Sequence record: PV340541
Direction: 5' to 3' (one strand)
Length of the DNA: 46,206 nt
Source: Escherichia phage mEp332
Each line of letters begins with the position of its first letter. The stretch's first letter is position 1. The notes beneath the pieces are model-generated. The model searched no databases, was not told the origin of the DNA, and saw only the letters and a list, made by a program, of their open reading frames with translations. Both the position numbers and the translations under genes were made by a program. This document shows, piece after piece, positions 33,404-34,684 of this stretch.

Positions 33404-34146
33404 ATGACACAGACAGAATCAGCGATTCTCGCGCACGCCCGGCGATGTGCGCCAGCGGAGTCGTGCGGCTTCGTGGTAAGCACGCCGGAGGGGAAAGATA
33501 TTTCCCCTGCGTGAATATCTCCGGTGAGCCGGAGGCGTATTTCCGGATGTCGCCGGAGGACTGGCTGCGGGCAGAGATGCAGGGTGAGATTGTGGCGCTG
33601 GTCCACAGCCACCCCGGTGGTCTGCCCTGGCTGAGTGAGGCTGACCGGCGGCTGCAGGTGCAGAGTGATTTGCCGTGGTGGCTGGTCTGCCGGGGGACGA
33701 TTCATAAGTTCCGCTGTGTGCCGCATCTCACCGGGCGGCGCTTTGAACACGGGGTGACGGACTGTTACACGCTGTTCCGGGATGCTTATCATCTGGCGGG
33801 GATTGAGATGCCGGATTTTCATCGCGAGGATGACTGGTGGCGTCACGGTCAGAATCTCTATCTGGATAATCTGGAGGCCACAGGGCTGTATCAGGTGCCG
33901 TTGTCATCAGCACAACCGGGCGATGTGCTGCTGTGCTGTTTTGGTTCATCGGTGCCGAATCATGCCGCCATTTACTGTGGTGATGGCGAGCTGCTGCACC
34001 ATATTCCTGAACAACTGAGCAAACGAGAGAGGTATACAGACAAATGGCAGCGACGCACACACTCCCTCTGGCGTCACCGGGCATGGCACGCATCTGCCTT
34101 TACGGGGATTTACAACGATTTGGCCGCCGCATCGACCTTCGTGTGA
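33404..34146 (+). CDS. K: tail tip assembly protein K with an apparent 1-bp deletion in a G run (33490-33493)
   Basis: ATG 33404 frame gives MTQTESAILAHARRCAPAESCGFVVSTPEG then stops; the rest of K (ERYFPCVNISGEPEAY...) is in the adjacent frame. Confidence 0.85.
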
Positions 34147-34684
34147 AAACGGGGGCCGAAGCCATCCGGGCGCTGGCCACGCAGCTTCCGTCGTTTCGCC
34201 AGAAACTGAATGAGGGCTGGTATCAGGTGCGCATTGCCGGGCGTGATGCAGGCGAAAATGAATTATCAGCCCGTCTTAATGAACCGCTGGCAAATGGTGC
34301 TGTGATCCATATCGTGCCGCGTCTGGCAGGAGCCAAAAGTGGCGGTGTGTTTCAGGCTGTGCTGGGGGCGGCTGTTATGGCGGTTGCTATATGGATGCCG
34401 GGGGTAGGAATTATGGCGAGTAATCTGCTGTTTTCTCTCGGTGCCAGTATGACGCTTGGCGGTGTTGCACAGATGCTGGCCCCTAAACCCAAAACCCCCG
34501 CACACAGACAACGGATAACGGCAAACAGAACACCTATTTTTCTTCACTGGATAATATGGTTGCCCAGGGCAATGTCCTGCCCGTTCTGTACGGTGAAATG
34601 CGTGTGGGGTCGCGGGTGGTATCTCAGGAGATCAGCACGGCAGATGAAGGTGATGGTGGTCAGGTTGTGGTGATTGGTCGCTGA
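34044..34684 (+). CDS. I: tail tip assembly protein I with an apparent 1-bp deletion in a C run (34495-34499)
   Basis: N-terminal about 150 aa in one frame; the conserved C-terminus (…QTTDNGKQNTYFSSLDNMVAQGNVLPVLYGEMRVGSRVVSQEISTADEGDGGQVVVIGR*) in the next frame. Confidence 0.85.

Follow-up and report, generated by a model that had tools for sequence, protein, structure and literature searches.

Two consecutive tail genes, K and I, of a lambda-type prophage each change reading frame within a short homopolymer run, which raises the question whether the element is a defective prophage that lost these genes very recently or whether its sequence was misread. The window, i.e., the whole stretch of 46,206 nucleotides that was analyzed, has a gene order that opens with int (90-1160, minus strand), continues with recombination and immunity genes, O/P, the nin region, Q, a porin gene, lysis genes, nu1/A and head genes, and proceeds to the tail genes V, G, T, H (29813-32374), M and L (32700-33398) that precede K; 3' of L, the genes are K, I, J (34745-38242), lom, stf and tfa. 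The gene order of annotated relatives matches that of the window, and K lies between L and I in the lambda-type module H, M, L, K, I, J, lom, stf, tfa, the position of a gene for a gpK-type protein. The remaining phage ORFs that were listed or translated are full length, with no sign of an IS element, a nonsense codon or a large deletion. The window also carries host-interaction cargo, namely a 365-aa porin encoded between Q and the lysis genes (15358-16455, minus strand), which is common in E. coli relatives, and a Bor/Iss-type serum-survival lipoprotein encoded after Rz (18228-18569, minus strand), which is present in many E. coli relatives as well.

The K gene begins with an ATG at 33404, and its first 30 residues, MTQTESAILAHARRCAPAESCGFVVSTPEG, are read correctly as far as the G run (Table 1). 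Past this run, the frame adds six wrong residues (KDISPA) and terminates at a TGA (33512-33514), for a product of 36 aa. The remainder of the protein, ERYFPCVNISGEPE...AASTFV, continues in the open -1 frame as far as the stop codon that ends at 34146, and its codons are undamaged. The passage from the upstream frame to the -1 frame amounts to a deficit of 1 nt, and insertion of a single G into the run yields a protein identical to the 247-aa K encoded on a nearly identical public contig, the twin that is discussed below. In the repaired protein and its twin counterpart, Pfam profiles detect Prok-JAB (PF14464; 52.4 bits, cut-off 25) and NLPC_P60 (PF00877; 49.2 bits, cut-off 23); in the longest in-frame K piece of the window, NLPC_P60 is retained (50 bits) and Prok-JAB scores 23.5 bits, under the cut-off. 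The break runs through the predicted JAB/JAMM site: the upstream frame contains the glutamate E19 (AESCG) and the downstream one HSHPGGLPWLSEAD, such that the JAMM motif E...HxHx7Sx2D is carried by one K chain only with the five-base G run that every unselected relative has. In phage lambda, gpK is needed for tail assembly, yet is absent from virions (PMC10721106; PMC12617516).

The I gene, whose first 64 nt overlap the end of K, shows the same type of lesion. Residues 1-139 are correct through ...APKPKTP at the C run and are followed by a 57-residue wrong-frame tail that terminates at 34671-34673, and the -1 frame that carries the true C-terminus is open from 34487 to 34684, again with undamaged downstream codons and a deficit of 1 nt relative to the upstream frame. 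With a single C inserted into the run, the I protein is identical to the 200-aa I of the twin contig. The Lambda_tail_I domain (PF06805; 83.5 bits, cut-off 23.8) is found in residues 1-84 of the I ORF of the window. In the sequence as given, the final 61 residues of the true protein are encoded in the other frame, so that the plug-forming C-terminus is not continuous with the N-domain; the two are continuous in the twin as well as in every unselected relative. Residues 135-223 of lambda gpI form the plug trimer inside the tail-tip lumen (PMC10721106). An exact-sequence look-up in an index of 153 billion genes found the frameshifted I product, with either start, nowhere on record. The preliminary description of this locus, which placed the frame change in K at the G run after codon 30 and that in I at the C run, attributed both to 1-bp deletions and considered the downstream sequences perfectly preserved in the adjacent frame, is thus borne out in all these respects.

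Table 1. Reading frames of the K and I genes and contracted homopolymer runs in the window (coordinates are those of the window)
Feature	Coordinates	Strand	Details
cII, G5 run	10407-10411	+	6 bases in 8 of 8 relatives with matching flanks; cII = 10229-10521
Intergenic T6 run, upstream of porin gene	16465-16470		T7 or T8 in 18 of 18 relatives
Intergenic T5 run	16909-16913		T6 in 18 of 18 relatives
Intergenic G6 stretch	18638-18643		7-9 bases in 11 of 11 relatives with matching flanks; variable region, weaker evidence
Intergenic T6 run, between D and E	25400-25405		T7 in 46 of 46 relatives
K, N-terminal reading frame	33404-33514	+	Same as residues 1-30 of intact K in L005 and L006
K, G4 run	33490-33493	+	5 bases in 19 of 19 relatives with matching flanks; G5 in zero-mismatch twin
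K, remainder (-1 frame)	33493-34146	+	HSHPGGLPWLSEAD JAMM motif and NlpC/P60 domain
I, N-terminal 139 residues	34083-34499	+	Lambda_tail_I domain, hydrophobic segment; alternative upstream ATG at 34044
I, C5 run	34495-34499	+	6 bases in 10 of 10 relatives with matching flanks (C6; one CCCCCA)
I, true C-terminal 61 residues (-1 frame)	34499-34684	+	RTQTTDNGKQ...VVVIGR and stop; matches part of lambda gpI plug region
lom, G5 run	38791-38795	+	6 bases in 7 of 7 relatives with matching flanks; twin G6; lom = 38313-38912
stf, A5 run	39526-39530	+	Longer in 1 of 1 relative with matching flanks; twin A6; stf = 38970-42376

Using the J protein of the window as the query for an exact-sequence look-up, we identified a sole public match, contig DAPRFW010000059.1 of the assembly GCA_031953105.1 (L005, 8325 nt). 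The comparison with this twin spans only positions 32934-41254 of the window, and over the 8,321 aligned window bases it contains no mismatches and four gaps. All four gaps are homopolymers that are one base shorter in the window: G5 to G4 in K, C6 to C5 in I, G6 to G5 in lom and A6 to A5 in stf. On the twin contig, K (247 aa), I (200 aa) and lom (199 aa) are intact, and stf is open through the site of the A run up to the end of the contig. The twin is a separate public assembly that may or may not come from the same isolate as the window; the prefix 'DA' of its accession suggests a third-party assembly of public short reads. A corrected sequence in which each run is longer by a G or C and both frames are restored had been named beforehand as the result that would overturn the reading of K and I as interrupted genes, and the twin, identical to the window bar four homopolymer lengths, is effectively that sequence. 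The accompanying claim that the element is unable to make infectious tailed particles on its own is probably wrong, given that K and I are intact in the twin.

To place the two lesions in the context of the whole window, every indel was compared with 65 related loci, which were taken from draft assemblies and metagenomes as well as complete genomes, and a contraction was counted when no relative with matching flanks had a run as short as that of the window. Some of these loci were found through H, A, portal, O, porin and V, proteins that are too common to have led to further contigs of GCA_031953105.1 among the matches listed, and they were used as relatives. Nine homopolymers of the window are below the length seen in all relatives, five of these in genes (cII, K, I, lom and stf) and four in intergenic regions, and the converse, a run of the window that exceeds the length in each relative, was not seen. 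The frame of cII shifts after ...LLAVLEWG; the true C-terminus of lom (…GAGVQFNPTESVAIDIAYEGSGSGDWRTDGFIVGVGYKF) is in the -1 frame; and stf is split into ORFs of 228 aa (38970-39656) and 907 aa (39653-42376). Between 23069 and 46206, three or more relatives can be compared at 18,864 positions; the window shows five private 1-nt deletions in this part and not a single substitution of its own. Runs of at least five bases comprise about 43 G/C runs versus 193 A/T runs, and the G/C runs account for a disproportionate five of the nine contractions (four of the eight that are well supported). The contracted runs amount to about nine of the approximately 240 runs of this length, and many runs of 6-7 bases are correct. 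The G5 run at 14185-14189 was considered as a further contraction and was not counted because several relatives share the length seen in the window. In the relative CUPS03 this run is G6, and the respective ORF is the remnant of a DUF1364 pseudogene.

The loss of exactly one base, only in homopolymers and in one direction only, in genes and intergenic DNA alike and without substitutions gives these lesions a technical rather than a biological look, and the location of four of the nine contractions in intergenic regions implies a process that is blind to gene function. Being confined to runs and unidirectional, indifferent to coding capacity and absent from the twin assembly, the contractions show the features of homopolymer error. 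The recurrence of the same lesion in cII, lom, stf and four intergenic runs, overlooked in the preliminary description, makes it a property of the assembly and not of K and I. Homopolymer indels that shift reading frames are a documented, systematic and the main residual error of nanopore assemblies and create false pseudogenes (PMC8011154). Judging from the sequence comparisons, we consider it highly probable that wrong base calls or consensus errors in the G and C runs produced the frame shifts of K and I; the breaks are present in the sequence as given, but defective-prophage biology is almost certainly not their cause. Of the two causes proposed in the preliminary description, very recent mutation or sequencing error, the twin and the nine one-way contractions favor the latter, and recent mutation is left with a minor share.

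Under this interpretation, homopolymer runs would have been systematically under-called by one base in the assembly of the window, in a manner typical of flow-based sequencing or of long-read assemblies that were not polished. The pattern resembles the known under-calling in nanopore, PacBio, 454 and Ion Torrent data in that the deficits are single-base, one-way, found in coding and non-coding DNA and repairable from homologs, and differs from it in that a smaller share of the runs is missed than in raw nanopore consensus. The actual prophage would most likely have G5 in K and C6 in I. It would then encode an intact 247-aa K that combines JAB/MPN and NlpC/P60 domains and is predicted to be needed for tail-tip assembly without being part of the virion, as well as an intact 200-aa I with a ubiquitin-like N-domain and a C-terminal plug inside the tail tip. 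For the use of this record, the window serves as a quality flag, with about one false single-base deletion per 5 kb, located at homopolymers, and annotations such as 'pseudogene', 'defective prophage' or 'split gene' for K, I, cII, lom and stf in the window are to be discounted until reads have been inspected.

The alternative that deserves the most attention is that the deletions are genuine products of very recent slippage in a freshly inactivated prophage that lacks functional K, I, cII, lom and stf and upon induction would produce heads but no working tails. Among natural frameshift mutations, slippage by a single base within a homopolymer is the most frequent, prophage genes are weakly selected in a lysogen, and the lack of further damage in the downstream frames of K and I is compatible with a very recent event. 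The modest rate of missed runs counts against under-calling, and with gpK required for tail assembly and residues 135-223 of gpI making up the plug, loss of these proteins would indeed be disabling. The two short alleles also occur in other complete genomes of E. coli: among the RefSeq 'complete' genome records that contain the respective segment, K-G4 is found in 11 of 2676 and I-C5 in 1 of 2537. PGAP, the NCBI annotation pipeline, marks the genes as frameshifted in both of the allele-bearing records that were examined, and these RefSeq records may themselves carry the same artefact. Against genuine slippage, it would have required at least nine independent events, all of them contractions and four in non-coding DNA, with no accompanying substitutions in 8.3 kb compared with the twin or in 18.9 kb compared with all relatives, and the same density of contractions throughout a genome would break hundreds of genes. 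During mutation accumulation in E. coli, substitutions far outnumber indels, even in mismatch-repair mutants. Nine one-way events without a substitution would be exceptional in true evolution, and real slippage at these sites appears unlikely. Its more specific form, a burst of slippage, e.g., in a transient mismatch-repair-deficient background, by which cII, K, I, lom and stf were recently lost, is no more credible; if it took place, the element would be proficient in heads and tail-less, with a decay datable to essentially zero substitutions. Should the lesions be true, a prophage that cannot build tails would be in a state that is commonplace among E. coli prophages and of little general interest.

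Programmed recoding, in which K and I would be expressed by -1 ribosomal frameshifting or by transcriptional slippage at the runs in a manner comparable to lambda G/GT, has in its favor that both breaks call for a -1 shift and that P-site re-pairing (GGG to GGG or CCC to CCC) might be possible. Neither site, however, contains an in-phase X XXY YYZ heptamer (the sequences are GAG GGG AAA GAT in K and AAA ACC CCC GCA in I), and runs of 4-5 bases are shorter than those known to cause transcriptional slippage. The two-frame layout is not conserved either: a single frame is present in all 19 relatives compared for K and all 10 compared for I, genes with K-G4 or I-C5 elsewhere are annotated as frameshifted pseudogenes, and recoding does not account for lesions of the same type in intergenic DNA and unrelated genes. 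The absence of a slippery heptamer in phase, together with the absence of any relative that needs a frameshift, effectively excludes programmed recoding, to which we assign a negligible probability.

Among the RefSeq complete genomes of E. coli, no match over the full length of the window exceeds 98.7%, and the best phage record reaches 95.5%; the absence of the window from the complete-genome set would fit a source that is of lower quality or deposited in GenBank only. Outside complete genomes, the K-site 39-mer has one match in IMG/VR, L046 (IMGVR_UViG_2531839640_000005), and a search of the IMG/VR, GTDB-representative and JGI metagenome collections gave no match to the I-site 40-mer. The last ~2.6 kb of L046 (8642-11286) are 90% identical to the window, with 40 gap positions, and about five single-base indels fall within the last ~0.5 kb. 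This sequence was rejected as a relative that carries K-G4, given its 90% identity and the many indels, which make it look like an error-laden contig end.

Compared with lambdoid phages, to which it shows ~91-96% DNA identity, the window shares with lambda the L-K-I-J order, the K/I overlap and the domains of K (Prok-JAB and NlpC/P60; 'C40 family peptidase') and I (Lambda_tail_I), and differs in that each of the two genes is split over two frames. The I protein of 200 aa is shorter than the 223 aa annotated in lambda, owing to a different start and a shorter segment. The stf frameshift of laboratory lambda (orf-401/orf-314) is a real 1-nt lesion that led to the loss of the side tail fibers. 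The stf gene of the window is likewise split by a single-base deficit, but at another site, as one of nine uniform contractions, and the deficit is absent from the twin.

The lambda reference sequence of 1982 (J02459/NC_001416) also lacks one base in the 5' part of K, at a position other than that in the window and not in a long run; in this case it is the record of the reference phage that is affected. In this sequence (L004), one G is missing in GGAGGC-TATTTCC, near 14262 (locus coordinate ~863). The extra K base, with no other difference, is present in 24 of the 36 other records listed, including the independently deposited lambda sequences KT232076, LC730321 (48,503 bp) and PV340536 as well as DE3, imm21 and imm434. 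The gap leads to the annotation of a 199-aa K that starts from MSPEDW, without the JAB N-terminus and the catalytic Glu, and is probably a sequencing error of 1982 that has been propagated in annotation to date. Public gene calls with a K of 199 aa and an I of 180-190 aa are found in L006 (13736-14874), L009, L010, L011, L061, L063 and L066. A shared frameshift behind the calls of 199 aa for K and 180 aa for I was considered and rejected because the 247-aa K ORF is intact in L006. In this locus, the only one checked, the short K call is a choice of start site that echoes the truncated lambda annotation and involves no mutation.
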